64,000 nucleotides of DNA. Origin: Eubacterium sp. Lineage in GTDB: Bacteria; Bacillota; Clostridia; Oscillospirales; Acutalibacteraceae. The translations under genes were made by a program, and so were the position numbers. The notes beneath the pieces are model-generated. The model searched no databases. It saw nothing but the letters and a program-made list of their open reading frames with translations, and was not told where the DNA came from. Shown here piece after piece: positions 936 through 52,494 of the stretch; position 1 is the first letter of the stretch; each line of letters opens with the position of its first letter. The stretch lies in the NCBI GenBank assembly GCA_046989265.1, contig JBKWUD010000004.1, positions 780 through 64,779 of the forward strand, given 5' to 3'.

Positions 936-1907
936 ATGGCATTGAATATTGACAGAGCTTTAGTTAAATCACAGGCAAAGCAAATTATTACGGGCAATGT
1001 GCTCAAGCTGTTTCTGATTAGCTTTATTGCAGTTTTTCTTATGTCGGGTGCAAATATATTTAGTTATTCATACAATGTATATAATAACCTTTCCAACGGC
1101 ACAGATAACAGCTACGGTTATTCGGATTTCTTTAATTTCGGAAAAGACAGCGACGAAAACGGAAACAGCAATTCATCAGGTGATGGATTCGACAGAGGTT
1201 ATTTTGATGATTTCAATGGCAAGTTAACCCTTCAGACATCAGCAATGGGTCAAAGCAATATACCGCTTATTAAATCAGTTATATTAAGATTGGGCAGCAT
1301 TGTTCAGATGGTATTCATGCCTCTTAGTGTAACGCTGATGGGATTATATATCATTACTGTGCGCGGTAAACGCTTTACCGTATTACAGGAATTTGAATAT
1401 GTTTTCAAAAATCTGTTTGATAAAAACTATTTTAAAAAATGGATGCTTTGTTTTCTTCAAGGCTTGATTGTCGGATTATTACTTCTGGTTTTTATTTTCC
1501 CCGGTGTTATATTCTATTACAAATATTATTTTGCCGAGTCCATTATGACTGATAATCCTGAAATTTCGTCGACAGATGCTCTTAAGCTCTCAAAGAAATT
1601 GACTGAAGGTCATAAGGGCGAGCTTTTTGCGCTCGACTTGAGCTTTATCGGTTGGTTCTTATTAACCATTATCACTTGCGGTTTGGCATCAATTTATACA
1701 ATTCCGTATTATAATGCAACAAAGGCTCTGTATTATGAGAATTTCAGAATAAGGGCATTCCAGGAGGGCAGGGTTACTGCTTTTGATTTTATGAATGATA
1801 CAGAAAGAGCAGCATATTATCAATCTCAAAATGTTTATTACCAACCTCCGCAAAATCCTACCTATGGCAGCGGAATGGGTAATGATTATTATAACAATAA
1901 TGTTTAA
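936..1907 (+). CDS. DUF975-family integral membrane protein
   Basis: Several hydrophobic helices, the motifs ALKLSKKLTEGHKGELFALDLSFIGW and PYYNATKALYY, and an AAGGAG RBS. Confidence 0.8.
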   Translation: MALNIDRALVKSQAKQIITGNVLKLFLISFIAVFLMSGANIFSYSYNVYNNLSNGTDNSYGYSDFFNFGKDSDENGNSNSSGDGFDRGYFDDFNGKLTLQTSAMGQSNIPLIKSVILRLGSIVQMVFMPLSVTLMGLYIITVRGKRFTVLQEFEYVFKNLFDKNYFKKWMLCFLQGLIVGLLLLVFIFPGVIFYYKYYFAESIMTDNPEISSTDALKLSKKLTEGHKGELFALDLSFIGWFLLTIITCGLASIYTIPYYNATKALYYENFRIRAFQEGRVTAFDFMNDTERAAYYQSQNVYYQPPQNPTYGSGMGNDYYNNNV

Positions 1908-2391: not shown

Positions 2392-3189
2392 TTGCTTAAA
2401 TTATCAGAAATCGCCAAAAGCACATATTACTATTATCTTAAACAAGGCAATAAAGATAAATATGAAAATCTAAAACTTAAGATTTCGGAAATATTCAAGA
2501 AGCACAAGGGCAGATACGGATATCGCAGAATAACAGAAGAACTGCATAAGGCAGGATATACAATTAATCATAAAACTGTACAAAAGCTGATGAAAGAGCT
2601 TGGATTAAGAGCTAAACAAAGCAAAAATGGGAGATATCATTCATACAAGGGTACGGTAGGTAAGATAGCAGATAATATACTAAAAAGGGATTTCAATGCG
2701 GACAAACCATTTGAAAAGCTTGCAACAGATGTTACACAGTTCAACGTCTGCAATGAGAAAGTATATTTATCACCTGTTCTTGATTTATTTAACAGAGAAG
2801 TTATATCTTACTCAATTTCACTAAGTCCTGACCTGCAGCAAATCAGAGATATGTTAAATGGCTTATTCAAGAAACTGCCTAAAGATGCAAAACCGATTTT
2901 TCATTCAGATCAAGGCTGGCAGTATCAGCATGCAGAATATCAACGCTTACTTACGGAGCATAACATTATACAAAGTATGTCACGCAAAGGTAACTGTATG
3001 GATAACGGAGCAATGGAAAACTTCTTCGGCAGACTGAAAGTCGAAATGTTTTACGGCGAAAGTTTTCAAACAGTTGATGAATTCATCAACTGTTTGAAAG
3101 ATTACATTGATTACTACAACAATGAACGAATCGTATCAAAACTGAAAATGAGCCCGGTGCAATACCGAACTCATTCTCTTACATTTTAA
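2392..3189 (+). CDS. IS3-family transposase OrfB (DDE), probably expressed as an OrfAB fusion by -1 frameshift
   Basis: YGYRRI, TDVT, HSDQGWQY, SRKGNCMDNGAMENFFGRLKVE, YYNNER. The frame is -1 relative to orfA and is open back to the A7 run. Confidence 0.93.
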   Translation: MLKLSEIAKSTYYYYLKQGNKDKYENLKLKISEIFKKHKGRYGYRRITEELHKAGYTINHKTVQKLMKELGLRAKQSKNGRYHSYKGTVGKIADNILKRDFNADKPFEKLATDVTQFNVCNEKVYLSPVLDLFNREVISYSISLSPDLQQIRDMLNGLFKKLPKDAKPIFHSDQGWQYQHAEYQRLLTEHNIIQSMSRKGNCMDNGAMENFFGRLKVEMFYGESFQTVDEFINCLKDYIDYYNNERIVSKLKMSPVQYRTHSLTF

Positions 3190-3296
3190 TATTTATTTTT
3201 GTCTAATCTTTGGGGGTCACTTCATATTGTCTGCGGTTTTCTGTTTATTTATTTAAGGGTTTTTGTTTTAACATATTCATTATATTAACTGCAATA

Positions 3297-4088
3297 TTAA
3301 AATAATTCATCAAGCAAGATGTAATATTTTAATTTCTGTTTATCTTCTTTTATGCCAAGCAAAGAGTAAAAATATTTCTTGGTATTTATGAACTCATCAT
3401 ATGACATACTGCATTGATTACACATATTGTATTTTAATGATCGCACGCATAGTGCGATATCCTGCCACCTGTCAGCGATACCGGCTTTTCCCAAATCCAA
3501 AAATCCAACTGTTTTGTTATTATCGATAAAAATATTAGGCAGGCAGTAATCGCCGTGTGTGAACACCAAATCATTATCAGGTTTGTTATTTATAAAAAAT
3601 AAGTATAATTCGTTAATGTCGGAAAATCCATCAGGATCAATTGTTTCATTTTCAAAATCCTCAATCAACTAATCCATTAATAATGTTAAATTTTGCTTGT
3701 TCAAGTCTTTTATTCAGGGTACTGTCCAGCGGACACTGCGATATATCAAGGCTCCATAATTGTTTTAATCCGTCTGCGAGTGCTTCGACTAATGATTTCG
3801 GGCTTTTTAATTTGATTTTATCGCATGCCAAATTGTCGTTAAACTTTGACATAAAATATAATTTTTACTGTTTTCACAAACGAATTTAATAATTTCAGGC
3901 ACGGGCAGTTTGCCTTTAAGCCAATTCATTGCCACAATTTCATTGTTTGACGAGTCATTTGCATCCTCAATTTTAAGCACATATTTGTCAAAAATTAAAA
4001 TTGTTGCTCCAGATTCACCAATGGAGTCGCGGATATAATCTTTTTCGCTAATTATAGTAGATATGGATTTCGGAAGTTTATTATACAT
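3297..4088 (-). pseudogene. Aminoglycoside phosphotransferase APH(3')-like gene split by two frameshifts
   Basis: Fragments 3807-4088, 3661-3852 and 3297-3668 join into one APH(3') (IGESGA, WLKGKLPVPE, HGDYCLPNI, DLGKAGIADRWQDIAL, YYILLDELF). Confidence 0.85.
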
Positions 4089-26720: not shown

Positions 26721-29700
26721 ATGGCATCTAAATTTGAGCTTATTACTGAAATGTATAATGAAGCGTGTAAAAATGTTGTTCGCTTTCCTCAGAATTGGTA
26801 TAAGTTTATTGCATCTGCCTGCTATAACTACCGATTGCGTTTTGACGAGCAGCTACTTGTTTTCGTTCAAAGACCTGATGCGACGGCTGTCCTTGAGTTT
26901 GACAAATGGAACAAAAGGTTTAATCGCAAAATAAATAGTGGCTCTAAAGGCATTGCAGTATTCAGTAATGACAGCAAAAAAGCAATCAAATACTACTTTG
27001 ATATATCCGATACAACAGAGCGTGAGCTATCAAAGCCTGTCCCCGTATGGCAGTACAAAGAGGAGTATCAGGCTTATGTTATTGAAACGCTTGAAAACTC
27101 TTTCGGAGAGCTTGAAAATAAAGACAATCTGTATAACGCAGTAATATCAATGGCTGAAAACATCGTCGAGGACAATATATCTGATTATCTTTCTGATTTA
27201 TTAGCAGTAACAGATGACAGCTTTCTTGAAGAACTTGATGACGATATGATTTCCTCAATGTATCGTTTAACTTTGCAGAACAGCATTGCTTTTATGGTAT
27301 TGACAAGGCTTGGTATTGATGCAACAGAGTATTTTGACAGAGAGGATTTTCAGGCTGTTGTAAATTTTAATACGCCTGATACGCTCAATGCTCTTGGATT
27401 TGCAACAAGTGATATTTCACAAATGGTGCTTTCAGAGGTGTCAAAAACTGTACTATCTCTTGAAAAATCAAATCGCATAATTGACGAAAAATCGCAGACA
27501 GATTATACTAAAGCCGAAAATAAAAATATTGAAAGGAGTGCTGATAATGGTACAGTACGATTACACAGTTCAGGGCGAAGTTCAGATACCAAATCTGATA
27601 ATGCCGATGCAGAAGAATTTGACTATGGGCAGATATTCGCAGATGAGGAAACAGTTTCTCAAGGAAAATCACAGAGTAATTTATTACAATTACCTGACGA
27701 AAGGAACATTGCAGAAGCATCTGTCGGATATAGAGAACAGAGCGAAAGTAATGGAAGAACAGTTGATGAAACAGATGTCCGAGCAGGAAGGCTTGACCGA
27801 GGAACTGAAAGCAGCCGACCAAATGGCTTGGGTACAATCAATGAACAATCTGAAAAGTCGAGTACAGGAAATCGTGATGAACGAGGTAGTTTACAGTCTG
27901 TAACAGATGAATTACCGCCTTTTGTTGATAAAGACTTAATTCCTGAAATCATTAAAAACCCTAATGATGTATTAACTCACCGCAAAGAATTTATTGTTAA
28001 ACAATTTTCAGAGCTTACAGAAAAAGAAAAGCCGAATTATGTTTCGACCTTGTATGGAGGTAAAACGGAAGAATTAAAAATCGGTAAAATAACAGTTGGA
28101 TATATGCAAGTCAAGGACGGACTCCTTATGTACGAAGGCAATTACAAAAATCGTACAAAGGAGTCCATTTTTTCTTGGTCACTTGTTGCTGAATTTATGC
28201 AACAGCTTATTGACAATAATGAATACTTGCCGAAAGAAGAAAAGACCGAGCCTACACAGTTCAGTCTTTTTGATTTCAATGAAACCTTTATCAACGAGCC
28301 TGATGTTACTGATAATTCACAGGTATCTTTGTTCACAGATTTTGGTGTATCGCAGCAGATTATTGATGAAGCGTTATGTTCAGGTGCAAACGAGGTAAAC
28401 AGCCGACTTGTAATATGTGCATATTTCAGGCGTAATTGGGGGCTTGAAAATAATGCTCAATTCTTAAAAGAACATTATGAGCAAGATGCCTTTGGCTTTA
28501 TATTTGAGGGCGAACAGGTATCAGTATTCTTTGATGAAAATGGTATAAAAATTTCTAAAGGCAATTATGCTAATCGTGCAGGAGCAACTCTTGTAACTTG
28601 GGAACAGGCTGCAAAAAGAATTTCTGAACTACTTGAAAATGGCAGATATATGCCGCAAAGCGAACTTGATAAACTTGATGATTTTGAAATCAGCTTTGTT
28701 GCAGACCGTATTGTTGAATTTTCAAGAAATATGGATGAGGATTATACTAACAGAGAAAACATTTTCCCTTTTGTAAAGAGCCGATTAAAAAATATTGCTG
28801 GCTATCCTGATAAGGTTGAAAAAGTAAAAGAACTTTTGAAAAATCCTGCATATTTCAAAGTGGTTGCAGATGAGTATGCAGACTTTATGCAGGCATTAGA
28901 GGATGACGGATATTTTCTTCGCTTTAATTATAGGAGAGAATATGCTCCTGAATATATAAATATTTTTGTTGAGGGTATGAGCCGTGAGCCTATACCTTTC
29001 AAGTCACAGGCTGATTTTACCACTCCGTCTGAATATTTCATATCGGAAGATGAAATAAAGGCGAGAATCAGGGGTAATGAGAGTAAGTACGATTCAGAAG
29101 AAAGGCTAAAAACATATTCATACTATCTTGAACACTCTAACGCAAAAGAGCGAGTAAAATATTTAAAATCAAATATAGGTTCAAGCGGAACAACGGATTT
29201 TAATCATTATGAACGGGATAGCAAAGGCTATACTTACAGCCATAACGATATTTTCAGACCTTATGCGAAAACAACAATGTCTTGGCAACAAGTAGATAAA
29301 TATATCAGCAAAATGATTGCAAATCACGAATATCTTTCGCAGGCTGATTTGAAATCAGTTGATTACTATGAGCGAAAACAGGCAGCTTTAGCTATTCATC
29401 ATTTTTATTTTGGTGTTCCGAAAGAATATCCAAGACTGAATGAGTGCAAGGAAGATGATTATTGGGAATCAGTTGAAAATATAGCTGAACAGCTCACCAA
29501 TCCTGACAGAGTATCAGAAATACACTCCATAATGACTGAACTGTATAACAGCATTGATTTTGAGGACAGATACAAAGAATATGCTGATATAGGTATCAAA
29601 ACAATCAACGAATTTGCAGACGGTACTTTCACTTGCTTTGGAGATAAAAGCAAGACCATTAATCCTTTAATCAAGGTTGAAAGACCTGCCGAAAAAGAAA

Positions 29701-32700
29701 ATGCAGAGCCTGCTTGGTTAAGCGAATACCATAGCTTAAAAGCAAAATATCCTAACACGATTACCTTTTATCAGGTTGGAGATTTCTTTGAAACCTATGC
29801 TGAAGATGCAACGCTTGTTGCTAAAGAGCTTGACCTTGTTCTGACAAGCAGACACATTAACGATACTGAGCGTGTTGCTATGTGTGGTTTCCCAAAACAC
29901 AGTCTTGAAAGATATGCTAAAAGACTTAATGAATTTGGTCTTTCTGTCGTTGTTTCAGAAATGGAAAATGGAGAGAGAAAAGAACAGATATATCCTTACC
30001 CTGTTTTAGTCAATGATAATATAGAGCAGAAAAAGGAAATTCCTGTTGGTGTTATAGAATATCTTGCCAATGATGGAACTGTTGGATATGTAACAGAGTA
30101 TTTCAATGAGTCTGATTTTCTCAAAGATATTGAGGATAATAGTTATTCAGGTGTTCCTACTACTGTAAAAGTATATAATAACCCTGATACTAACGAACAT
30201 ATTTCAACATCGTTTTTGAATGACCTTGATCCGCCTATGAATCACTTTGAAATTGTTGATTATGTTCTTGAACAATCACCTACTTTTAAAGAGGCAAAAG
30301 ACCTTATCGACGATTTTGTTAATAAGGAATATGAGCATAGCAATGGTGCTGATTTCAGCGATTTAACAAATGTTAATGTTGCATATACCAATCTCGGTGA
30401 CAATGAGGAACACGAAGTACAGGCATCTGTTGACCTTGTTAATTTTGCTGTCAACAAATACTATGATGGTAAACTTGCTGAAAGCAGTCAGTATAAAAGC
30501 CTTGATGAACTTATCGAATTTGAGCTTGAGGGACTCAGCTTTGATGACTTGGTATATATTGATGAGGATAAAATCGCAGAGCTTGAAAAAACTCCTGTTA
30601 CTATTGAACAGGCATTGCAGTATATTAAAAACTTCAATGAAATCTCAACAGAATATACCGATGAAAGTCAGTATGCAGATTTATCAAACATTGCTCTTGC
30701 CTACACAACTACTGAGGATAGCAAACACGAAATTCAGGTAACTGCAAATCTTGTTGATTTTACAATCAATCAATATATTGATGATAAATTAGTCTATACA
30801 GAGCAGTACAGCAGTCTTGATGATATGACAGGAAAGGCTTTGAAATGGCTTGATTTTGATGACTTGGTATCAGTCAGTGATGATGCTGAATTAAAGTTCA
30901 AAGAACTTTCCGAAAATGAAAAAGCATCTGCACCTAAACCGAGAGTACAGACCTTTGATTTGCACCCTGAAATACCAATGTCAGCAAGGCATAACTATAA
31001 CTTTGCCGAAAAAGAAATCGAAACAGTAGGCAAAAAAGAGCGTTTTCGCAGAAATATTGATGCTATCAATGTTCTTAAAGAATGCGAATTTGACAATCGT
31101 TTTGCAACTCCTGAAGAACAGGAAATATTATCAGGCTATGTCGGTTGGGGCGGTATTCCTGAAGCCTTCGATGAAAACAATCAAGCGTGGGCAGATGAAT
31201 TTATAGAGCTTTATACTGTATTAAGCCCTGATGAGTATGCGGCTGCAAGAGCAAGCACCCTTACTGCCTTTTATACTCCACAGCCCGTTATTTCTGCAAT
31301 ATACAAGGCACTTGACAATCTCGGCTTTAAGCAAGGCAATATCCTTGAGCCTTGCTGTGCAATCGGTAACTTTATCGGTATGCTGCCTGAAACTATGCAA
31401 GACAGTAAAATGTTTGGCGTCGAGATTGATACCATATCGGCAGGCATAGCACAGCAGCTTTATCAGAAATCGTCAATTATGGCACAGCCTTTTGAACAGG
31501 CTAATCTGCCTGACAGTTTCTTTGACGCTGTTGTCGGTAATGTTCCATTCGGTGACTATAAGCTGAATGATAAAAGGTACGATAAAAACAATTTCCTTAT
31601 TCACGATTATTTTATGGCAAAATCTCTTGATAAATTAAGACCGGGGGGCGTTATGTGCCTTGTCACATCTAAAGGCACGATGGATAAGGAAAGTTCAAAT
31701 GTACGCAGATATTTAGCTCAAAGAGCCGATTTGCTCGGTGCTATTAGACTGCCGGACAATACCTTTAAGGGCAATGCAGGCACAAGGGTTACATCTGATA
31801 TTCTCATACTCCAAAAGCGTGACAGAATGACACTATCGGGGTCCCTGTCAAATCGGAGATTTGATGGGGAAAGGAGGAGCGACGGAGTGAATGAGCTTTC
31901 ATCATCAGATGGAAGCGAACGATATGGAGTCCGTGACGACGCTGAGCCTGATTGGGTACAGCTTGATACTGATGAGAACGGTATCAAAATGAACAAGTAT
32001 TTTGTTCAACACCCTGAAATGATACTCGGCAATATGGTTATGGAACAAGGCAGATTCAAGCCTGAAAGTGTCTGCAAGGCATTTGAAAATTCAGACTTAT
32101 CTGACCTGCTCGATAAGGCAGTTTCAAACATTAAGGGCGAAATAACAGAGTATTCCTTTGATGATGAACTTGAAGAAAATGACGAGGAATATATCCCTGC
32201 TGATCCGAATGTTAAAAATTTCTCTTACACCGTTTATGACGGTAAAATATATTACCGAGAAAACTCTATAATGAGAGAGGTTAAGGTAGGTGTAACTGCC
32301 GAAAACAGAATTAAGGGTATGATTGCAATTCGTGATAGTGTGCGTAAGCTGCTTGATATGCAGATGAGCAACTATTCTGATGATGAAATCAAGGCTGAAC
32401 AAACAAATCTGAACACAGTTTATGACAGCTTTGTTGCAAAATACGGATATATCAACAGTCGAGCAAACGCATCTGTTTTCACAGAGGACAGCTCATATTT
32501 CTTAATCTGCTCACTTGAAATATTCAAAGAAGGCAAATTTGAGCGTAAGGCTGATATGTTCACAAAAAGGACTATTCAGACACATACTGCTAAAACACAC
32601 GCAGATACTTCCATAGAGGCTTACGGTATCAGTATGGGTGAAAAAGCAAAGGTTGATATGGAATATATGTGTCAGCTTACAGGCAAAAGTGAAGATGAAA

Positions 32701-35700
32701 TATTTGCAGATTTGCAAGATACCATATTCCTTAATCCTGATTATTCCGAAAACAGCAACGCTCCGAAATACCTCACATCTGATGAATATTTATCAGGCAA
32801 TGTCCGTGAAAAACTCCGTCAGGCTAAAGACTTAGCCGAAAGAGATGAGCGTTTCAAAATCAATGCTGCTGCACTTGAAAAGGTACAGCCTGTTGACTTG
32901 AAAGCAAATGATATTTCTGTTCAGCTTGGCTCAACTTGGCTGCCGATTGAATATATAGAACAGTTTATGTATGAACTGCTTGATACGCCATTTTATTTGC
33001 AATACAAAATCAAAGTCCATTATAACGAGGTTGCAGATGCTTGGAACATCGAAAATAAAGCGGCTGATAATATCAATCTGAATGTTACGCAGAAATATGG
33101 AACGAATCGCAAGAATGCTTTTCATATTATTGAAAATACTTTGAACTTGCGAAATGTAAAGGTATTCGATTATGAGGAAAACGATGAGGGCAAGAGAGTT
33201 GCAATTCTTAATAAAGAAGAAACGACCATTGCACAACAAAAGCAGAAAATCATAAAGCAAAAATTCAAGGATTGGATATGGCGTGATCCTGAACGCAGGG
33301 ACACACTTTGCAAGCTCTACAATGAAAAATTCAACTGTATCCGCCCCCGTGAATATGACGGAAGTCATATTGTCTTTGAGGGTATGAATCCTGAAATTAC
33401 TTTGCGACCTAATCAGAGAAACGCTGCTGCAAGAGGTATCTATGGCGGTAATTCCCTATTAGCACATTGCGTTGGTGGAGGCAAAACCTACACAATGGCA
33501 GCAATAGCACAAGAGAGCAAAAGACTTGGTTTATGTTCCAAGTCTTTATTTATTGTACCAAATCATCTTGTATCACAATGGGCAAGCGAGTATCTAACCT
33601 TGTATCCTTCTGCAAATATTCTTGCTGCCACGAAGAAAGATTTTGAAACGAAAAACCGAAAGAAATTCTGTGCGAGAATTGCCACAGGAGATTATGATGC
33701 AATTATTATCGGTCATTCACAATTTGAAAAAATCCCTTTGAGTGTAGGCAGACAGGTATTTAATATCAATAAACAGATTGATGAAATACTGCAAGGCATT
33801 GCTGATTTGAAAGAAAATAACGGAGAAAAATTTACGGTTAAGGCTCTTGAGCAGACAAAGAAAAAACTTGAAAGCAAACTTGAAAAGCTCAATGACCAAA
33901 GTCGAAAAGATGATGTTGTTACCTTTGAAGAACTCGGTATTGACCGAATATTTGTTGATGAAGCTCACTATTACAAAAACCTTTTTGTTTATTCCAAAAT
34001 GCGTAATGTGGGCGGCATATCACAGACAGAGGCTCAAAAATCAAGCGACTTATTTATGAAATGTAGGTATCTTGATGAGCTTACAGGCAACAAGGGTGTT
34101 ATCTTTGCAACAGGAACTCCAATCAGTAATTCAATGGTTGAGCTTTACACAATGCAGAGATATTTGCAATATGATTTACTCCGTGACTTTGGTTATATTA
34201 ACTTTGATTCTTGGGCAGCACAATACGGCGAAACTGTCACAGCAATGGAGCTTGCTCCTGAAGGAACAGGCTATCGTATGAAAACACGATTTGCAAGATT
34301 TAATAATCTGCCTGAGCTTATGGCAATGTTCAGAATGTGTGCAGATATTCAAACTGCCGATATGCTCAAGCTCCCTGTCCCAAATGCTGTTTATAAAAAT
34401 GTATCTGTCAAGCCATCAGAAATTCAGGTTGATATGGTATCAGACCTTGCAGACCGAGCCGAAAAAGTAAGGTTAGGAGAAGTTAAGCCGTATGAGGATA
34501 ATATGCTCAAAATCACCAATGACGGCAGAAAATTAGCACTCGATCAAAGGATTATAAACCCGGCATTGCCTGATTTTGAGGGCAGTAAGGTCAATGAATG
34601 TATCAGAAACATTTATGATATTTGGGAAAACTCCGCCGAAAAGAAATCAACGCAGCTTGTATTCTGTGATTTATCTACGCCTAACAAAAAGACTATTGAA
34701 ATGGAAATCGTTGACGATGAGGCGAAGATGCTTGTGTTTCAAAATATCTATGATGATATTCGTACAAAACTTATTGAAAGAGGTGTCCCTCCTGAAGAAA
34801 TAGCTTTCATTCATGATGCGAATAACGATAAACAAAAGGCTGATTTATTTGCAAAAGTAAGATCAGGCAGTGTGCGTGTTTTACTCGGCTCTACTCAAAA
34901 AATGGGTGCAGGAACGAATGTTCAAAACAGGCTGATTGCCATTCATAACATTGATTGCCCGTGGCGTCCTTCTGATTTGGAGCAGCGTGCCGGAAGAATT
35001 ATTCGTCAGGGTAATGAGAATGACGAGGTATATGTTTACCGTTATGTTACCGAGAATACCTTTGATGCTTATCTCTATCAGCTTGTTGAAACAAAACAGA
35101 AATTTATCGGTCAGGTTATGACAAGCAAAACACCTATGCGTTCTGTTGAAGATGTTGACGAGGCTGCACTTTCTTATGCAGAAATCAAAATGCTTGCAAC
35201 AGGTAATCCGCTTATCAAGGAAAAGATGGATTTGGATAAGCAGGTTGATGATTTGAAGTTGCTTGAAAGCAGTTATTATTCTGAAAGGTATGACCTTGAG
35301 GACAAAGTTAATAAGGAATATCCGCATACTATATTAAGGTGTAAAATAGAAATTAAGGCACTTGAAAAAGATATTGAAACTGCAAAGCAGTACCCGAAAA
35401 GTTCTGCTGATTATTTTGGTGGAATGATTATAAATGATGACCACTACACCGAAAAGAAAGCCGCAGGCGAAGCTATCATCCGCATAATGAAATCATTTAA
35501 GCACAGTTTGCAGACACTCCCTGTCGGCAAGTACAGAGGTTTCGATATGGAAATGACACTCTCAGCAGGATTATGTACTAACTTTGTTCTTTCAATTAAA
35601 GGTGCTATGACGCACAAGGTTGAACTCGGCTATGATATATACGGAAATATCACACGAATTGATAACTGTATTGACCATTTTGAAAGCGATTTGAAAGCGG

Positions 35701-35924
35701 TGACTAACAGTCTTGCTGAAACACAAAAACAGCTTACAATCGCACAGGAGAGCCTGAAAGAGCCTTTTGAACAGGCTGAAGAACTTGCCGAAAAACAAGA
35801 ACGATTGAACGAGCTTAACGAGATTTTAAGCCTTGATTCCAAAGATGATATTGGTTTCGTTGATGAAGAGCCTGACGAAATTGACTATATTCAAAAAAAT
35901 AAAAAATATATTGCAGTTAGATGA
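26721..35924 (+). CDS. Giant N6-adenine methylase / SNF2-type helicase (DarB-like) with ArdC-like N-terminus and MutS-I-like domain
   Basis: GYVGWGG, AFYTP, LEPCCAIGNF and VGNVPF (MTase); HCVGGGKT, DEAH, ATGTPISN and QRAGRIIRQGN (SF2 helicase). Confidence 0.9.
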   Translation: MASKFELITEMYNEACKNVVRFPQNWYKFIASACYNYRLRFDEQLLVFVQRPDATAVLEFDKWNKRFNRKINSGSKGIAVFSNDSKKAIKYYFDISDTTERELSKPVPVWQYKEEYQAYVIETLENSFGELENKDNLYNAVISMAENIVEDNISDYLSDLLAVTDDSFLEELDDDMISSMYRLTLQNSIAFMVLTRLGIDATEYFDREDFQAVVNFNTPDTLNALGFATSDISQMVLSEVSKTVLSLEKSNRIIDEKSQTDYTKAENKNIERSADNGTVRLHSSGRSSDTKSDNADAEEFDYGQIFADEETVSQGKSQSNLLQLPDERNIAEASVGYREQSESNGRTVDETDVRAGRLDRGTESSRPNGLGTINEQSEKSSTGNRDERGSLQSVTDELPPFVDKDLIPEIIKNPNDVLTHRKEFIVKQFSELTEKEKPNYVSTLYGGKTEELKIGKITVGYMQVKDGLLMYEGNYKNRTKESIFSWSLVAEFMQQLIDNNEYLPKEEKTEPTQFSLFDFNETFINEPDVTDNSQVSLFTDFGVSQQIIDEALCSGANEVNSRLVICAYFRRNWGLENNAQFLKEHYEQDAFGFIFEGEQVSVFFDENGIKISKGNYANRAGATLVTWEQAAKRISELLENGRYMPQSELDKLDDFEISFVADRIVEFSRNMDEDYTNRENIFPFVKSRLKNIAGYPDKVEKVKELLKNPAYFKVVADEYADFMQALEDDGYFLRFNYRREYAPEYINIFVEGMSREPIPFKSQADFTTPSEYFISEDEIKARIRGNESKYDSEERLKTYSYYLEHSNAKERVKYLKSNIGSSGTTDFNHYERDSKGYTYSHNDIFRPYAKTTMSWQQVDKYISKMIANHEYLSQADLKSVDYYERKQAALAIHHFYFGVPKEYPRLNECKEDDYWESVENIAEQLTNPDRVSEIHSIMTELYNSIDFEDRYKEYADIGIKTINEFADGTFTCFGDKSKTINPLIKVERPAEKENAEPAWLSEYHSLKAKYPNTITFYQVGDFFETYAEDATLVAKELDLVLTSRHINDTERVAMCGFPKHSLERYAKRLNEFGLSVVVSEMENGERKEQIYPYPVLVNDNIEQKKEIPVGVIEYLANDGTVGYVTEYFNESDFLKDIEDNSYSGVPTTVKVYNNPDTNEHISTSFLNDLDPPMNHFEIVDYVLEQSPTFKEAKDLIDDFVNKEYEHSNGADFSDLTNVNVAYTNLGDNEEHEVQASVDLVNFAVNKYYDGKLAESSQYKSLDELIEFELEGLSFDDLVYIDEDKIAELEKTPVTIEQALQYIKNFNEISTEYTDESQYADLSNIALAYTTTEDSKHEIQVTANLVDFTINQYIDDKLVYTEQYSSLDDMTGKALKWLDFDDLVSVSDDAELKFKELSENEKASAPKPRVQTFDLHPEIPMSARHNYNFAEKEIETVGKKERFRRNIDAINVLKECEFDNRFATPEEQEILSGYVGWGGIPEAFDENNQAWADEFIELYTVLSPDEYAAARASTLTAFYTPQPVISAIYKALDNLGFKQGNILEPCCAIGNFIGMLPETMQDSKMFGVEIDTISAGIAQQLYQKSSIMAQPFEQANLPDSFFDAVVGNVPFGDYKLNDKRYDKNNFLIHDYFMAKSLDKLRPGGVMCLVTSKGTMDKESSNVRRYLAQRADLLGAIRLPDNTFKGNAGTRVTSDILILQKRDRMTLSGSLSNRRFDGERRSDGVNELSSSDGSERYGVRDDAEPDWVQLDTDENGIKMNKYFVQHPEMILGNMVMEQGRFKPESVCKAFENSDLSDLLDKAVSNIKGEITEYSFDDELEENDEEYIPADPNVKNFSYTVYDGKIYYRENSIMREVKVGVTAENRIKGMIAIRDSVRKLLDMQMSNYSDDEIKAEQTNLNTVYDSFVAKYGYINSRANASVFTEDSSYFLICSLEIFKEGKFERKADMFTKRTIQTHTAKTHADTSIEAYGISMGEKAKVDMEYMCQLTGKSEDEIFADLQDTIFLNPDYSENSNAPKYLTSDEYLSGNVREKLRQAKDLAERDERFKINAAALEKVQPVDLKANDISVQLGSTWLPIEYIEQFMYELLDTPFYLQYKIKVHYNEVADAWNIENKAADNINLNVTQKYGTNRKNAFHIIENTLNLRNVKVFDYEENDEGKRVAILNKEETTIAQQKQKIIKQKFKDWIWRDPERRDTLCKLYNEKFNCIRPREYDGSHIVFEGMNPEITLRPNQRNAAARGIYGGNSLLAHCVGGGKTYTMAAIAQESKRLGLCSKSLFIVPNHLVSQWASEYLTLYPSANILAATKKDFETKNRKKFCARIATGDYDAIIIGHSQFEKIPLSVGRQVFNINKQIDEILQGIADLKENNGEKFTVKALEQTKKKLESKLEKLNDQSRKDDVVTFEELGIDRIFVDEAHYYKNLFVYSKMRNVGGISQTEAQKSSDLFMKCRYLDELTGNKGVIFATGTPISNSMVELYTMQRYLQYDLLRDFGYINFDSWAAQYGETVTAMELAPEGTGYRMKTRFARFNNLPELMAMFRMCADIQTADMLKLPVPNAVYKNVSVKPSEIQVDMVSDLADRAEKVRLGEVKPYEDNMLKITNDGRKLALDQRIINPALPDFEGSKVNECIRNIYDIWENSAEKKSTQLVFCDLSTPNKKTIEMEIVDDEAKMLVFQNIYDDIRTKLIERGVPPEEIAFIHDANNDKQKADLFAKVRSGSVRVLLGSTQKMGAGTNVQNRLIAIHNIDCPWRPSDLEQRAGRIIRQGNENDEVYVYRYVTENTFDAYLYQLVETKQKFIGQVMTSKTPMRSVEDVDEAALSYAEIKMLATGNPLIKEKMDLDKQVDDLKLLESSYYSERYDLEDKVNKEYPHTILRCKIEIKALEKDIETAKQYPKSSADYFGGMIINDDHYTEKKAAGEAIIRIMKSFKHSLQTLPVGKYRGFDMEMTLSAGLCTNFVLSIKGAMTHKVELGYDIYGNITRIDNCIDHFESDLKAVTNSLAETQKQLTIAQESLKEPFEQAEELAEKQERLNELNEILSLDSKDDIGFVDEEPDEIDYIQKNKKYIAVR
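27481..27509 (+). promoter_or_regulatory. Internal SigA promoter within the helicase gene
   Basis: TTGACG-17-TATACT, 37 nt upstream of the nested ATG. Confidence 0.65.
27547..27903 (+). CDS. tnpV: TnpV-family protein (118 aa) nested in an alternative frame of the helicase gene
   Basis: Y..QG...IPNL, GRY..MRKQFLKE.H...Y, EGLTEELKAADQMAWVQSMNN......EIV..E.VY match TnpV; GAAAGGAG RBS at 27531-27538. Confidence 0.8.
   Translation: MVQYDYTVQGEVQIPNLIMPMQKNLTMGRYSQMRKQFLKENHRVIYYNYLTKGTLQKHLSDIENRAKVMEEQLMKQMSEQEGLTEELKAADQMAWVQSMNNLKSRVQEIVMNEVVYSL
31838..31942 (+). mobile_element. ~105-bp GC-rich structured in-frame insertion (MITE/REP-like) in the helicase gene
   Basis: Hairpins ccctgtcaaatc-gga-gatttgatgggg and gctttcatc-atca-gatggaagc. 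It interrupts the LQKRDR...EPDW segment. Boundaries are approximate. Confidence 0.6.
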
Positions 35925-38995: not shown

Positions 38996-39100
38996 TTCAA
39001 TTAATTTTTATATTATCTAAAAAAAGCAATGAAAATTCACTTTTACATAAGTCAATTGGTTTATATAAAGCAGTCGGATTTTTCTATTTTAAGGGAGGTG

Positions 39101-39466
39101 ATGAATATAGACAAAACAGAATTTTACAACGAAAAGTTGCGAAAGAAAATGCAGGCAGAGCTTGATAAATTCATTGCTGATTGGAAAACAAAATCATCAG
39201 CGGATACAGTTGAACTTGCCTACGAACTCACATACAAAGAGGAAATCATGAACAGCTTTGACTTTGATTGGGTGGGCAGAACACCTGTCTCTGTTGAACA
39301 GGCAAAGGCACTGCTTGCTCTGAAACATCCTCTTGACTATCTCTATCAGGAATGGATTGAGTATGATGATTCACCGCTTGATATGCTGCGTGACAGTAAT
39401 AATCTTGCGATAGAAAAAGCAGTAAATCATATAAAATCACGAACTGATATTGAAATGGAAAGATGA
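39101..39466 (+). CDS. DUF3848-like protein
   Basis: KMQAEL..F, AYELTYKEEI, QAKALL....PLDYLYQEW. GGGAGGTG RBS; the start is ATG 39101 or ATA 39107. Confidence 0.7.
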   Translation: MNIDKTEFYNEKLRKKMQAELDKFIADWKTKSSADTVELAYELTYKEEIMNSFDFDWVGRTPVSVEQAKALLALKHPLDYLYQEWIEYDDSPLDMLRDSNNLAIEKAVNHIKSRTDIEMER

Positions 39467-39499: not shown

Positions 39500-40884
39500 A
39501 TCGAAAACTTAACCTTTATTGATTTTTTCAGCGGTGTTGGAGGTTTTCGCAAAGGCTTGGAACTGTGCGGAATGACCTGCAAAGGTCACTGTGAAATCGA
39601 CAAGTATGCAGACAAAAGTTATCGTGCAATATTTGATATTAAGGAGGATGAATGGTATGCAGAGGACATCACAAAAGTTACAGGAGAAGAACTCCCAAGA
39701 GTTAATATCTGGACAGCCGGATTTCCATGTCAGGACATTTCTGTCAGTGGCAAACAGCGAGGGCTTGCAGGAGAGAGAAGCTCTCTCTTTTTTGAAATCA
39801 TTAGACTGCTCAAAAGCAAAAATGCCGAAGATAGACCCGAATGGATTATCTTTGAAAATGTTAAAAATCTGTTCTCGATTAATAAAGGATGGGACTTTGC
39901 GACCATTCTAAATTCGCTGGCCCAAGTCGGCTATAATATCGAATACGGACTGCTTAATTCAAAATTCCACTGCGTACCGCAAAACAGAGAACGAGTGTAT
40001 ATTGTCGCTTATCGACATTTTAGAGCCGACAGCAGACGAAAAATATTTCCTGTCAGAGCATCAGATGCAAAGGCTCTTATACAGCTAATCGGCGGCAGAC
40101 AGGGTGACAGAGTATATGACTCAAGAGGTATTAGTTGCACTTTGACCGCTAACGGCGGAGGGTTTGCAGGCAGAACAGGAATGTACTTTATTGATCTCTG
40201 TAAAGGCAAGCCTACATTGACAGAAAATGCCCGTTGTATCAAGGCAAGATATGACAACGGAATATCAAATTTTTCAGCGGATAAGTCAGGTGTATTGTGC
40301 TTATCCGCTGATTGTTCTGAAAGAACAAATGAGATATTACCTGTCAAATTTCAAAGAGGAAATCCTAAAATCAATGAAAAAGGTATAAGCAATTGCATAT
40401 CGGCAGGTTACAGCAAGAGCGGTGTAAACAACAGAGGTGAAGCTACAGGGGTATTCTATGGCTGTCGTGCTGTTTTAACTCCCGACAGAGAGAAAAAACG
40501 GCAGAACGGCAGACGATTTAAAGAGTGCGGAGAGCCTGCTTTTGCCTTACTGCACAGGATAAACACGGTGTATTTTTATGTGCCTGTACGGATTGTGAAC
40601 ACGCAATGCCGATTAAAAATGCAACAAGGAAAGGATGTTCTCAGACACTTGATACTTCCTGCAATCAGGGTGTTGCCTTATCAAGCTGTGGCAGAATACG
40701 AAAACTTACACCGAGAGAATGTTTCAGATTGCAAGGGTTTTCAGACGAAATGTTTGATAGAGTCGCTGCTGTAAACTCTGACAGTCAGTTATATAAGCAA
40801 GCAGGAAATGGTGTAACTATCCCTGTTGTCTATGCTATCGGAATGAGGATTGCTGAAATACAAAATGAACTTAATATTGAATAA
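39500..40884 (+). pseudogene. dcm: C5-cytosine DNA methyltransferase with a 1-nt frameshift near 40540
   Basis: FIDFFSGVGG, GFPCQD, ENV and PQNRER are in one frame; RKLTPRECFRLQGF and YKQAGNGV are in another. One extra T in the T4 run at 40540-40543 would fuse them. Confidence 0.8.
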
Positions 40885-42824: not shown

Positions 42825-42845
42825 GATATTAGCGAGGTGCGAAAT

Positions 42846-43301
42846 ATGGATTTACAATCTATGATTGAAAGTAAAAATATGTCAAAGTACCATTTATCAA
42901 AAATCAGTGGTATACCTAAAACAACTGTTATAGATATTTGTTCGGGAAAAAGCTCTATTGAAAACTGCAATGCAAAAACTGTTTTGAAAATTGCAAGAGC
43001 TTTGGACTGCACTATGGAGGAAATTATGATGCTTGACAGTCCTAGTGCTTATAGTAAAGAAACAGGATTGCCGAATGATAAAAAATATTTTGAATGCGGT
43101 TTGCCAAAATATTTGCAAATCTCACTTGACAATATGAAAAACTCTTGGAAAATTGTTGACAGCGGTGAAGATGACTTGCATTGGGATTTGTATTGGTGTG
43201 AGCTTAATGCCGATATTAATTCAGCTGAAGTTGATAAAACAATATCTGCTGAACAGGCTTGGTATCTGCGTGAAAAATATTTAAGAATGGAAAGGAATTG
43301 A
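42846..43301 (+). CDS. XRE-HTH protein, probable antitoxin
   Basis: SKYHLSKISGIPKTTVIDI HTH; directly upstream of the HipA-like kinase. Confidence 0.75.
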   Translation: MDLQSMIESKNMSKYHLSKISGIPKTTVIDICSGKSSIENCNAKTVLKIARALDCTMEEIMMLDSPSAYSKETGLPNDKKYFECGLPKYLQISLDNMKNSWKIVDSGEDDLHWDLYWCELNADINSAEVDKTISAEQAWYLREKYLRMERN

Positions 43302-43305
43302 CAGC

Positions 43306-44211
43306 GTGATTGATTTTACAAATTTGCCTACAAGAAACAAGACATACGCAGGAGCAAACGGAAGTAAAATATCCGTAATATATAACGGCGAACAATATAT
43401 GCTGAAGTTTCCGTCATTTGCACCTAAAAACAAATCACTCAGTTATGCTAATGGCTGCATTTCAGAATATATAGGTTGTCATATTTTTGAAAGTATAGGA
43501 ATAGATGTTCAAAAAACTTTGCTTGGGACATATAAAAAAAACGAAAAAGAAAAAATTGTAGTTGCCTGTAAGGACTTTACTAAATCAGGCATTGTGCTGC
43601 AAGATTTTGCTTCTTTAAAAAATACCATCATTGATTCAGAGCATAATGGTTATGGAACTGAACTTGATGATATTATGAAAGCCATAGAAGAACAGCAAGC
43701 GGTTAATCCAATATTGTTGAAGGATTGGTTTTGGAATATATTTATTGTTGATGCTTTAATTGGAAATTGGGATAGGCACAATGGCAACTGGGGATTTTTA
43801 TATAATGTCGATACAGATGAAATGTCTATTGCTCCGGTGTTTGACTGTGGCAGCTGCCTGTATCCTCAGGCTGATGAAGAGATAATGAAAGCAACTTTGG
43901 AGAATAAGGCAGAACAGGATTTGCGTATTTTTTCGATACCATTATCAGGTATTAAAATTGATAACAATAAAATAAATTATTTTGACTTTATTTCTTCATT
44001 GCAAAACAAAGATTGCAATAGAGCATTAAAAAGAATTTTGCCACGAATCAATATGATTGATATAAATCGCATTATTGACGAAACTCCGTATATAACCGAT
44101 TTGCAAAAGAGTTTTTATAAAACAATGCTTTCACAGCGAAAAGAAAAAATACTTGATTTTTCGTTTAATAAATTACGCAAACTTGAAAAGAACAAGGAAC
44201 AAACAAGATAA
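43306..44211 (+). CDS. HipA/CtkA-like kinase toxin
   Basis: GANGSK, YMLKFP, SEY, DALIGNWDRHNGNWG, APVFDCGS. Confidence 0.82.
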   Translation: MIDFTNLPTRNKTYAGANGSKISVIYNGEQYMLKFPSFAPKNKSLSYANGCISEYIGCHIFESIGIDVQKTLLGTYKKNEKEKIVVACKDFTKSGIVLQDFASLKNTIIDSEHNGYGTELDDIMKAIEEQQAVNPILLKDWFWNIFIVDALIGNWDRHNGNWGFLYNVDTDEMSIAPVFDCGSCLYPQADEEIMKATLENKAEQDLRIFSIPLSGIKIDNNKINYFDFISSLQNKDCNRALKRILPRINMIDINRIIDETPYITDLQKSFYKTMLSQRKEKILDFSFNKLRKLEKNKEQTR

Positions 44212-51540: not shown

Positions 51541-52098
51541 ATATCAGAAAATAAAAAATACAAAATAATTCTTTGCGACCCACCGTGGCAGTACAAGGTG
51601 TATTCTAAAAAAGGTTTAGATCGTTCAGCAGAAAATCATTACCCTACAATGAGCCTTGAAGATATACAAAATCTGCCGATAAATAATTTAGCAGATAAAG
51701 ATTGTGCTTTATTTATGTGGACTACAATGCCTTTGCTCAAAGATAGTTTTTCTGTATTGGAATCTTGGGGATTTCAATATAAAACTATTGCGTTTGTATG
51801 GATAAAACTGAACAAAAAATCTGATAAACTGTTTTGGGGTATGGGGCATTGGACGAGAGCCAATGCAGAGTTATGTATCCTTGCTACAAAAGGACATCCT
51901 AAAAGGCAATCTGCAAAAGTTCATCAAGTTATTATGTCGCATATTCAGCAGCATAGTAAAAAACCTGATGAAACAAAAGATAGAATTGTTGAGCTTGTGG
52001 GAGATTTACCACGCATTGAATTATTTGCAAGAAATAAAACAGATGGGTGGGATTGTTGGGGTAATGAGGTTGAATGTGATATACAGCTTACACCTTAA
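51541..52098 (+). CDS. MT-A70-family adenine methyltransferase
   Basis: DPPW, HYPTM, LFMW, HSKKP, IELFAR, GW..WGNE. DPPW lies upstream of the first GTG, so the start is placed at ATA 51541. Confidence 0.88.
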   Translation: MSENKKYKIILCDPPWQYKVYSKKGLDRSAENHYPTMSLEDIQNLPINNLADKDCALFMWTTMPLLKDSFSVLESWGFQYKTIAFVWIKLNKKSDKLFWGMGHWTRANAELCILATKGHPKRQSAKVHQVIMSHIQQHSKKPDETKDRIVELVGDLPRIELFARNKTDGWDCWGNEVECDIQLTP

Positions 52099-52146: not shown

Positions 52147-52494
52147 TTGAACTATCAGATTTATAAGCAATCACTTAATCAAAAACTTATAGACAAAGTG
52201 CAAAGTGAACTTGCTGATTTTAGTGAAGAAACACTAAAAAAAAGTAAAAATGATATTTATGATAAAGCAAACGAAATTGCAACTAAAATAGTAATTGCTG
52301 ACTGCCTTTCAAAATTAGATTATTCTCCATCAGCAGCAAGAGCTATGCTAAAATCATCTAATCTTTTGAACGATATATATGATGAATGGCTTGAAAAAGA
52401 TTATTCTCATATAGATGATATAATATATACCATATCAGAATATAAAAAATATATGGTAAAAACAGAAAGAATAATAAACGAAAAAGAGCGATAA
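52147..52494 (+). CDS. DUF3848-like protein (second copy)
   Basis: KVQSEL.DF, KANEI..K..I, ARAML....LL.DIYDEW; AAGGAGG RBS. Confidence 0.6.
   Translation: MNYQIYKQSLNQKLIDKVQSELADFSEETLKKSKNDIYDKANEIATKIVIADCLSKLDYSPSAARAMLKSSNLLNDIYDEWLEKDYSHIDDIIYTISEYKKYMVKTERIINEKER

Follow-up and report, generated by a model that had tools for sequence, protein, structure and literature searches.

A complete tnpV gene lies in the +1 frame within the linker region of a giant methylase-helicase gene

Analysis of a 64,000-nucleotide stretch of Eubacterium sp. DNA (contig JBKWUD010000004.1; the whole stretch is referred to here as the window) points to a tnpV gene of full length lying, in the +1 frame, within the linker-coding part of a giant gene, with both frames under selection and with TnpV likely to initiate its own translation at a GAAAGGAG-ATG start. 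We estimate the probability of this reading at roughly 85%. Approximately 60 other loci across the phylum show this +1 arrangement too, directly after the N-terminal domain, and it is the rule in the gene family instead of a peculiarity of one contig. Since both readings are open in all these related loci, the shared DNA very likely makes two proteins.

The giant gene and the gene within it

The giant open reading frame (ORF), a gene of an integrative conjugative element, encodes, in this order, an ArdC-like N-terminal domain, a disordered linker, a MutS_I-like domain, an N6-adenine methyltransferase (MTase) and a SNF2/ResIII helicase. Coordinates of these parts and of the elements of tnpV are summarized in Table 1. 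The giant frame contains no stop codon across the whole of tnpV, with which it shares 357 bases. No match for the N-terminal domain was found in Pfam (none at E ≤ 1 for residues 1-255), among PDB sequences or in PHROG. Its predicted fold (residues 1-254) gave ArdC of plasmid R388 (6i89/6sna) as the top three Foldseek matches, all of them weak (E 0.048-0.096, probability 0.60-0.97, TM-score 0.20-0.38).

Table 1. Features of the giant gene and of the nested tnpV (window positions).
Feature	Position	Strand	Details
Giant ORF	26721..35924	+	3067 codons; ORF list, translation, Pfam, PADLOC helicase and MTase matches
N-terminal folded domain, residues 1-254	26721..27482	+	AF2 pLDDT ~90
Promoter-like site TTGACG-17-TATACT	27481..27509	+	-10 end 37 nt before the tnpV ATG; 10 of 12 consensus matches
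Predicted disordered linker, residues 255-403	27483..27929	+	AF2 pLDDT <50; reading that shares its DNA with tnpV
Shine-Dalgarno sequence GAAAGGAG	27531..27538	+	8 nt 5' of the tnpV ATG
tnpV	27547..27903	+	118 codons plus TAA (27901-27903); +1 frame of the giant ORF, giant codons 276-395
Weak hairpin over the tnpV stop, then GCCTTTTGTTG	27885..27916	+	Doubtful meaning; MFE -17.8 kcal/mol over 111 nt, z -1.96
MutS domain I-like segment, residues 1001-1087	29721..29981	+	Pfam PF01624, E 3.5e-22
N6-adenine methyltransferase core (Eco57I-type), residues ~1541-1671	31341..31733	+	Pfam PF07669, E 3.4e-07, Methyltransf_25; PADLOC MTase to E 5.6e-12
SNF2/ResIII helicase, residues 2226-2764	33396..35012	+	Pfam ResIII, SNF2-rel_dom, Helicase_C; NCBIfam and PADLOC DrmD/BrxH-like

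An earlier, sequence-only reading of the window had proposed that the nested ORF is a full-length gene of the TnpV family. The search against the Pfam profile bears this out: residues 6-115 match model positions 2-111 of 111 of TnpV (PF14198; E 8.7e-38, 129.2 bits against a cut-off of 27), which identifies the predicted product as a bona fide member of the family. In a six-frame search of the source genome it scored 128.5 bits and was the sole full TnpV. The protein also matches PHROG 24764 (E 1.9e-34), a PHROG without an assigned function. Counted from the TTG at 27481 instead of the ATG, the ORF in this frame would comprise 140 codons.

The AF2 model of TnpV (pLDDT 86.7) consists of a beta-hairpin followed by five helices. 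No relative was identified among PDB sequences (the best match, at E 0.096, is a designed protein), and fold searches returned a best E of only 3.3 with Foldseek and a best Z of 6.2, to an uncharacterised protein, with VIA. Xis and winged-helix proteins do not occur in the Foldseek and VIA match lists, an absence that excludes nothing. The PADLOC models gave no match for TnpV.

Conservation and selection of the two frames

Nesting of tnpV was examined in three samples of loci, which are relatives of one another, so that the counts given here are not independent events. Among 30 family-level loci with the N-terminal domain, 27 carry TnpV inside the large frame, near full length in 26 and partial in one. 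All 16 large ORFs with this domain that were sampled at the level of the phylum contain a nested tnpV (12 full, one N-truncated and three partial), and a search with the TnpV protein yielded 20 of 80 loci with no large-frame stop and an ORF of 460-3278 aa spanning tnpV. In these 20 the identity of TnpV to that of the window falls from 85% to 44%. Every nested gene uses the +1 frame, and the expectation that homologues keep both frames open was borne out in all three samples. Stand-alone tnpV genes have 1-18 stops in the corresponding frame.

The number of large-frame stops expected by chance was estimated by synonymous reshuffling of TnpV codons with the codon usage of the large ORF. For the window, 9.7 stops are expected and none is present; not one of 5000 shuffles was stop-free. 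None was observed in 21 nested loci (4.7-11.0 expected, P(0) ≤ 0.0034) or in 41 further loci (2.6-11.7 expected, P(0) ≤ 0.025). TnpV identity exceeds linker identity in all 190 pairs compared (0.53 vs 0.34, the latter being the mean pairwise identity of the linker), marking TnpV as the more constrained of the two readings. Pairwise differences at positions 1, 2 and 3 of its codons amount to 0.37, 0.28 and 0.51, and at equal protein identity nested tnpV genes show fewer synonymous differences than stand-alone ones (e.g. 0.39 vs 0.57 at 60-70%). These tests support the suggestion that this is a true dual-coding region, with selection acting on both frames and holding both open.

The large frame across tnpV had been described as a polar, disordered-looking linker, and the AF2 prediction concurs, placing the disorder of residues 255-403 exactly where tnpV sits. 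In 45 loci the linker is composed mainly of G (13.4%), S (10.9%), D (10.9%), E (9.8%) and R (9.8%). Its hydrophobic fraction is 0.122, compared with 0.196 in stop-free synonymous shuffles of TnpV; it is lower than in the shuffles in every one of the 44 loci examined, significantly so (p<0.05) in 41. The codon choice of TnpV not only avoids every large-frame stop but also holds hydrophobic residues in that frame to a level lower than stop avoidance alone would produce, which is sensible only if the large frame is translated. Correlation of codon usage with the rest of the giant gene, examined as a guide to the older of the two frames, gave an RSCU r of 0.13 for TnpV and 0.27 for the linker frame; the third positions of TnpV are distorted (T 0.11, G 0.45) by stop avoidance.

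Some of the conservation visible in the linker is a shadow of the hidden tnpV. A near-invariant "ER" of the linker alignment is explained by the Shine-Dalgarno sequence that lies there, and the apparent motif DG.G...EQ stands opposite the conserved TnpV stretch QM.WV..MNN.

In a maximum-likelihood tree of 126 TnpV proteins, the label nested or alone needs seven changes, compared with 34.7 in shuffles; the starred branches force only one. A single clade of nested TnpVs is not rejected by the AU test (p 0.173), and one origin of nesting is thus allowed by these data.

Start signals of tnpV and alternative explanations

Of 21 close nested loci, 19 have exactly the Shine-Dalgarno sequence GAAAGGAG and the other two have GAAAGGGG; it was also found in most of 25 further loci. 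Upstream of it in the window lies a promoter-like site composed of TTGACG (27481-27486), a 17-nt spacer and TATACT (27504-27509). These elements, together with the ATG and the TAA of the gene, are all located where the sequence-only reading had put them. The same reading had suggested that an internal promoter could drive a shorter methylase-helicase transcript as well; no conserved restart for the large frame was seen.

The conserved promoter-like pair is a putative internal promoter of tnpV. It is also possible, with a likelihood that we place appreciably below even, that the full-length giant mRNA is the sole template for TnpV, whose translation would begin internally at the Shine-Dalgarno sequence; TTGACG-17-TATACT would then be no working promoter and would owe its conservation to codons of the large protein. 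The site is the top-scoring one within 26-29 kb, a region in which promoter-like sites are no commoner than in shuffles (13 vs 10.0 ± 3.3), so in this window alone it could be due to chance. Part of its conservation may be protein-driven, because the hexamers fall in the conserved final stretch of the N-terminal domain (NRII..YT; ...NRxxA...Y in the alignment). In addition, the site scores below 8 of 12 in nine of 44 loci, and in the GC-richer clade L131-L135 it reaches just 7 of 12. On the other hand, a comparable site (at least 9 of 12) occurs at the same place in 21 of the 44 distinct nested loci, but in only 2.5% of 1680 control windows. The -10 hexamer switches among -10-compatible forms (TATACT, TACAAT, TATAAT, GATAAT and TATGAT) while the encoded residues change (YT, YN, DN, YD), and it stays 31-37 nt from the tnpV ATG.

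Three further explanations, all much less probable, concern the products of the locus. The least probable of all is a +1 shift of ribosomes translating the giant frame, which would carry them into that of TnpV and yield a fusion of the ArdC-like head with TnpV without separate initiation. An SD-like element just upstream can stimulate +1 frameshifting, as in prfB, and such an element lies just 5' of tnpV; three in-frame head::TnpV fusions of 368-378 aa are also predicted (P0026-P0028). Each of these is, however, a single sequence from one contig, two of them arising by deletions that removed the start region of TnpV. Moreover, a stop closes the TnpV frame of the window only 22 codons 5' of the ATG, and the ATG, needless for a fusion, is kept in nearly all loci. 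Inspection by eye revealed no 0-frame stop near the Shine-Dalgarno sequence and, at the site itself, neither an in-frame stop nor a hungry codon, and a programmed +1 frameshift site was rejected on these grounds. The chance that the nested frame is instead an unexpressed relic, e.g. of an old insertion, with the giant protein as sole product, is scarcely greater. Some giant genes do contain partial TnpV frames (model positions 1-64 in L140 and 42-109 in L159-L161). Decay would be expected of a relic, yet 26 of the 30 and 12 of the 16 loci sampled have an open TnpV frame of full length (E 1e-16 to 1e-47), and this frame varies most at its own third positions, is the better conserved one in every pair and retains an ATG with a near-invariant Shine-Dalgarno sequence.

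Marginally less improbable, though still very unlikely, is a set of three separate genes, for the ArdC-like head, TnpV and the methylase-helicase, with a functionless open frame across tnpV. The two closest relatives, L033 and L114, have a 1-nt deletion ~90 nt after tnpV that splits the large frame into 458 + 2665 codons, so a single giant chain is not indispensable everywhere. Short ORFs of the N-terminal domain alone exist (L137, L141, L174), and public annotation gives the helicase part alone. Such an arrangement does not account for the absence of stops from 62 loci where 2.6-11.7 were expected in each, for the stops found in the same frame of stand-alone tnpV genes, or for a shared reading that is poorer in hydrophobic residues than stop avoidance needs. 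The reading preferred here remains that of one giant chain and a separately initiated TnpV.

A hairpin of doubtful meaning covers the tnpV stop codon, and it was not called in the terminator scan. A terminator after tnpV was rejected as a general feature: the mean MFE in 42 loci is -15.3, compared with -15.0 in controls, and terminator-like sites follow tnpV in two of the 42 loci and in 51 of 1260 controls. In 10 of the 42 loci the region after tnpV folds better than 90% of its own controls.

Related systems and significance

TnpV of the clostridial mobilisable transposons Tn4451 and Tn4453 belongs to the same Pfam family, PF14198, and likewise comes from mobile elements of Bacillota. The tnpV of Tn4451-type elements is a free-standing gene, whereas that of the window lies wholly within the frame of another gene. 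The neighbours of stand-alone tnpV relatives are heterogeneous and include serine recombinase, relaxase, HTH_17, DUF6809, RhuM, sigma factor/DUF4367 and cargo genes. The serine recombinases, relaxases and cargo genes among them fit the TnpV homologues of Clostridium difficile transposons, as listed in PMC3158075. An Xis-like role of TnpV in excision is put forward there as a postulate only (PMC3158075), and it is not backed here. The source genome encodes 16 large serine recombinases as against its one full TnpV, and none of the 16 is on the source contig.

The giant protein resembles ArdC of R388 weakly and in its head only, both proteins being from conjugative elements; unlike ArdC, it adds the linker, the MutS_I-like domain, the MTase and the SNF2 helicase. 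To our knowledge, no nested gene has been described in ArdC. Small genes that lie out of frame on the same strand within another gene and have their own start signals include comS, embedded in srfA-B of Bacillus subtilis, and Rz1, embedded in Rz of phage lambda. The nested tnpV, at 118 codons, is longer than either. It also differs from them in belonging to a large, mostly free-standing family and in forming a pair that is conserved across a phylum in conjugative elements. A physical tie between tnpV and a large SNF2-type gene of integrative conjugative elements (ICEs) is also found in Streptococcus suis, where, according to PMC9815147, tnpV-carrying IMEs insert into snf2. There the element interrupts snf2; in the window the large frame runs through unbroken, insertion ends are absent and the two readings share their bases. 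A literature search found no paper describing tnpV nested in this way.

In a phage collection, 43 records matched, of which 14 were from Streptococcus. Among the 15 of these 43 matches that were listed, all are unannotated "Bacteriophage sp." contigs from human faeces and none is a Streptococcus record.

It had been predicted that gene callers would miss the nested gene. This was only partly correct. TnpV is annotated: a 98-aa, 5'-shortened form from the source contig is present in the public protein collection, and TnpV is listed in a RefSeq relative. The loss affects the front of the giant gene instead. The 3067-aa product is absent from the collection, and the SNF2 CDS of the RefSeq relative lacks 1032 codons of open frame. 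Public records thus shorten either the giant gene or the start of TnpV.

On the reading preferred here, the giant protein would be a single chain in which residues 255-403 flexibly connect the ArdC-like head with a body made up of MutS_I, MTase and helicase parts, and TnpV would be a separate 118-aa protein of a beta-hairpin plus helices. Its message might be the long mRNA, with initiation inside it, or a short transcript that starts at the conserved -35/-10-like pair 31-37 nt upstream. Through nesting, tnpV would be inherited with the giant gene and share its timing, and the context predicts a role of TnpV in the maintenance or transfer of mobile elements. A wider proposal is that the two form an ancient pair of single origin in ArdC-type methylase-helicase genes across Bacillota, with tnpV overprinted on the linker, driven by its own promoter and acting as partner of the giant protein when transferred DNA establishes in a new host. 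We advance it tentatively, as it is unlikely to be correct in all these parts. If true, the sequence of the "disordered linker" would be dictated by a hidden gene.

Long same-strand overlaps that are conserved, with selection on both frames, are rare in bacteria and are disallowed by annotation pipelines. In the samples searched, a sizeable minority of one Pfam family, TnpV, is encoded inside another gene, and apparent conservation in a disordered region can stem from another frame. The tnpV gene is among the commonest unexplained genes of Bacillota mobile elements. Its fixed place in an antirestriction-type gene gives genetics a point of access, since a mutation that leaves one product unaltered can inactivate the other.

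Layout of the nested gene

The sequence-only reading had placed a TnpV-like gene with its own promoter and ribosome binding site inside the helicase gene, and every positional detail proved correct: promoter-like hexamers, an SD sequence and a 118-codon ORF on the same strand in another frame. The tnpV gene occupies the +1 frame of the giant ORF (27547 - 26721 = 3 x 275 + 1), whose own frame contains no stop codon across it. Its product matches the Pfam TnpV model along its length (positions 2-111 of 111, E 8.7e-38, 129 bits against a cut-off of 27), which bears out the family assignment.

Features of the nested locus in the window
Feature	Position	Strand	Basis
-35-like TTGACG	27481-27486	+	sequence
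-10-like TATACT	27504-27509	+	17-nt spacer from TTGACG
SD GAAAGGAG	27531-27538	+	8 nt before tnpV ATG
tnpV, 118 codons	ATG 27547 to TAA 27901-27903	+	ORF and Pfam TnpV
Giant ORF, 3067 codons	26721-35924	+	ORF list
MutS_I	giant residues 1001-1087	+	domain match
Eco57I-type N6-methylase	giant residues about 1541-1671	+	domain match
ResIII/SNF2/Helicase_C	giant residues 2226-2764	+	domain match

AlphaFold2 modelling of the first 450 residues of the giant protein (35-row alignment) gave a pLDDT of about 90 for the N-terminal domain (the head, residues 1-254) and below 50 for the linker (residues 255-403), in keeping with the earlier description of this stretch as disordered-looking. Since tnpV corresponds to giant codons 276-395, it lies wholly within the predicted disordered tether. 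The three best Foldseek matches of the head were ArdC of R388 (6i89, 6sna); these are weak (E 0.048-0.096, TM-score 0.20-0.38), so the head is called ArdC-like only as a lead. The TnpV model (70-row alignment, pLDDT 86.7) predicts a beta-hairpin (residues 5-16) followed by helices (residues 29-115), and sequence and structure searches of the PDB found no convincing solved relative.

The giant ORF sits among the genes of an integrative conjugative element: ParA, ParB, a SpaA/thioester adhesin, DUF3991-Toprim, NikA/MobC, relaxase, VirD4, PrgI, VirB4, sortase and two further DNA methylases. The element holds three DNA methyltransferase modules (the N6-MTase of the giant gene, a C5-MTase at 39557-40774 and an MT-A70 at 51598-52098), two DUF3848 genes (39029-39466 and 52147-52494), and an HTH (Cro/C1-type) gene followed by a HipA_C-domain gene (42837-44211), likely a toxin-antitoxin-type pair. 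Outside it, at 2392-3668, an IS-type integrase (rve) ORF adjoins a 123-codon fragment that matches only the C-terminal part of APH phosphotransferase.

The expectation that gene callers would miss the nested gene held in part. TnpV is annotated, in shortened form: a 15-billion-protein collection lacks the exact 118-aa TnpV and 3067-aa products and contains a 98-aa TnpV from the same contig, begun at an internal Met. In RefSeq NZ_OY725736.1 a single 2554-codon ORF is listed as 'TnpV protein' and 'SNF2-related protein', the latter starting 1032 codons into the frame (PLSDB table, which may omit features). Annotation pipelines thus retain one of the two genes at the expense of the other, the front of the giant gene being what is lost.

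Nested and free-standing tnpV in relatives

TnpV is widespread in the host's family (112 of 201 genomes); 29 of the 30 best-scoring loci there are free-standing, and in these the frame left open in the window contains 1-13 stops. Searching the genomes of 185,579 species with the window's TnpV yielded 80 loci. Twenty have no stop in the large frame and belong to a 460-3278-codon ORF that begins about 850 nt upstream, their TnpV identity to the window ranging from 85% down to 44%; the remaining 60 carry 1-18 stops. The reverse search is the stronger result. The first 255 residues of the giant protein matched in 37 of the 201 family genomes, and 27 of the 30 loci returned (the window among them) have a TnpV match in the +1 frame within a large open frame, 25-283 nt past the domain (26 near full length, one partial); the others are two short domain-only ORFs and one broken large frame. 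A head-plus-linker profile matched 33 genomes in a phylum sample of 401, where every large ORF with a full head domain (16/16) holds a +1-frame TnpV (12 full, one N-truncated, three partial). Homologues in all three samples (20/80, 27/30 and 16/16 loci) keep both frames open and, given the outcome of the head-query and phylum searches, nesting is the normal state of the giant-gene family.

Where only the linker portion of the head-plus-linker profile matched, outside giant ORFs, stops interrupt the match (3-9 across loci and 4-9 in the clearest cases, mostly TGA), and four of these loci (L165, L166, L167 and L170) were confirmed as free-standing tnpV genes. Examples of such shifted-frame linker matches are G465:C1:10071-10517, G578:C1:160030-160491 and G126:C21:71249-71614, the last two being confirmed free-standing tnpV genes. 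Matches of this kind indicate that the linker sequence shadows that of TnpV.

Other arrangements were noted. At L022:1458-2435 (genome G193) another frame across tnpV is also stop-free in a different overlap architecture, starting beside the tnpV start and extending 326 codons past it, with no ArdC-like head upstream. In one clade (L077, L079, L085, L092, L104, L106 and L108; e.g. L079:10311-10628) a DUF6809 gene lies downstream of free-standing tnpV, and in five of the seven loci the two overlap by 29 nt at the tnpV end; a convergent RhuM-family gene comes next in four, forming a recurrent small module. A second, partial TnpV match in the window's own genome (G000:C2:34510-34617, L002:1441-1632; 27 bits over model positions 67-102) falls within a stop-flanked open frame of 56 codons and resembles the remains of a decayed tnpV.

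Selection on the two readings

TnpV codons were redrawn 5000 times among their synonyms, weighted by codon usage in the remainder of the giant ORF. For the window, 9.7 large-frame stops were expected and none was seen; no redraw was stop-free (0/5000). The large frame is open in all 62 loci tested, with 4.7-11.0 stops expected in 21 (P(0) <= 0.0034) and 2.6-11.7 in 41 further loci (P(0) <= 0.025); the loci compared in the selection tests are relatives, and their counts are not independent trials. TnpV is the more constrained reading: its identity exceeds that of the linker in 190/190 pairs (mean 0.53 versus 0.34). Pairwise differences at TnpV codon positions 1/2/3 are 0.37/0.28/0.51, so the large frame's own third position is its least variable. 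This conservation pattern contradicts the view that nested tnpV is an unexpressed relic.

The overlap also reduces TnpV's synonymous freedom. Synonymous differences at conserved-residue codons are 0.50 in nested versus 0.62-0.66 in free-standing pairs at 30-50% protein identity, and 0.39 versus 0.57 at 60-70%; nested pairs are lower in 6/7 identity bins. When synonymous redraws were forced to be stop-free in the large frame (44 loci), hydrophobic, aromatic or Cys residues made up 19.6% of that frame versus 12.2% observed, a share below the redraws in 44/44 loci and under the 5th percentile in 41. Compared with the redraws, the observed linker is enriched in G, D, E and A and lacks Cys. Stop avoidance alone thus does not account for the selection on the large frame, and this hydrophobic-poor composition argues for translation of the linker and for the importance of its disorder-type make-up. 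Both frames are under selection, which supports the dual-coding proposal.

Stop avoidance and composition bias contradict the alternative that the locus comprises three distinct genes and that the open frame across tnpV means nothing, an alternative for which the window's two closest relatives could be cited. In L033 (10430-10560) and L114 (G026, same genus) the giant ORF is broken by a common 1-nt deletion (GTTAAG-AATTT versus GTTAAACAATTT). The deletion lies about 90 nt past the tnpV stop, equivalent to window position about 27990, and leaves frames of 458 and 2665 codons with an overlap of about 49 nt; a pseudogene, a tolerated split and an assembly error are all possible readings. The only evidence for a +1 frameshift producing a head::TnpV fusion is three predicted public proteins (P0026, P0027 and P0028, 368-378 aa) that join an ArdC-like head to TnpV in frame. 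Each is a singleton from one contig, and in two of them deletions took out the SD/ATG region together with 14-27 residues at the TnpV N terminus.

Start signals and the place of TnpV

Of 21 close nested loci, 19 share the exact SD GAAAGGAG and two have GAAAGGGG, always 7-8 nt before the ATG; most of 25 further loci share the arrangement. Conservation of the SD accounts for E271-R272 being near-invariant while the rest of the linker varies. The window's promoter-like site (10/12 matches) is the best in 26-29 kb, where such sites are not more frequent than in shuffled sequence (13 versus 10.0 +/- 3.3); judged within the window alone, it could be chance. Across distinct nested loci a -35/-10-like pair recurs at a fixed distance, with 31-37 nt between the end of the -10 and the ATG: pairs scoring >=9 of 12 occur in 21/44 loci versus 2.5% of 1680 control windows from the same genes, and >=8 of 12 in 35/44 versus 10.4%. 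Because the -10 alternates among TATACT, TACAAT, TATAAT, GATAAT and TATGAT as the residues it encodes vary, selection looks to act on the hexamer itself. The site overlaps conserved codons of the large frame, and a GC-richer clade has no good match. On balance, the internal promoter is probably active.

A hairpin or terminator after tnpV is not general across nested loci. Strong, unrelated hairpins (-16 to -27 kcal/mol) lie inside the giant ORF within 45 nt of the tnpV stop at L041:10345-10381, L054:1300-1332, L128:2705-2734 and L139:2582-2614, the last three followed by a T-run, and might act as attenuators in those four elements.

Free-standing tnpV genes neighbour serine recombinases, relaxases, HTH_17, DUF6809/RhuM, sigma-factor modules and cargo genes. 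A Xis analogy for TnpV, postulated in PMC3158075, gained no support here. The window's genome encodes 16 large serine recombinases, none on the window's contig, and one full TnpV, which speaks against a one-to-one excisionase role.

In a tree of 126 TnpVs the nested state clusters (7 changes versus about 35 in shuffles), and the AU test does not reject a single clade of nested genes (p 0.173). A literature search found no published account of a tnpV inside a helicase or antirestriction gene, and family-wide nesting appears undescribed in print. Same-strand nested genes are themselves a known kind, and nested tnpV resembles comS in srfA-B and Rz1 in Rz in this respect.
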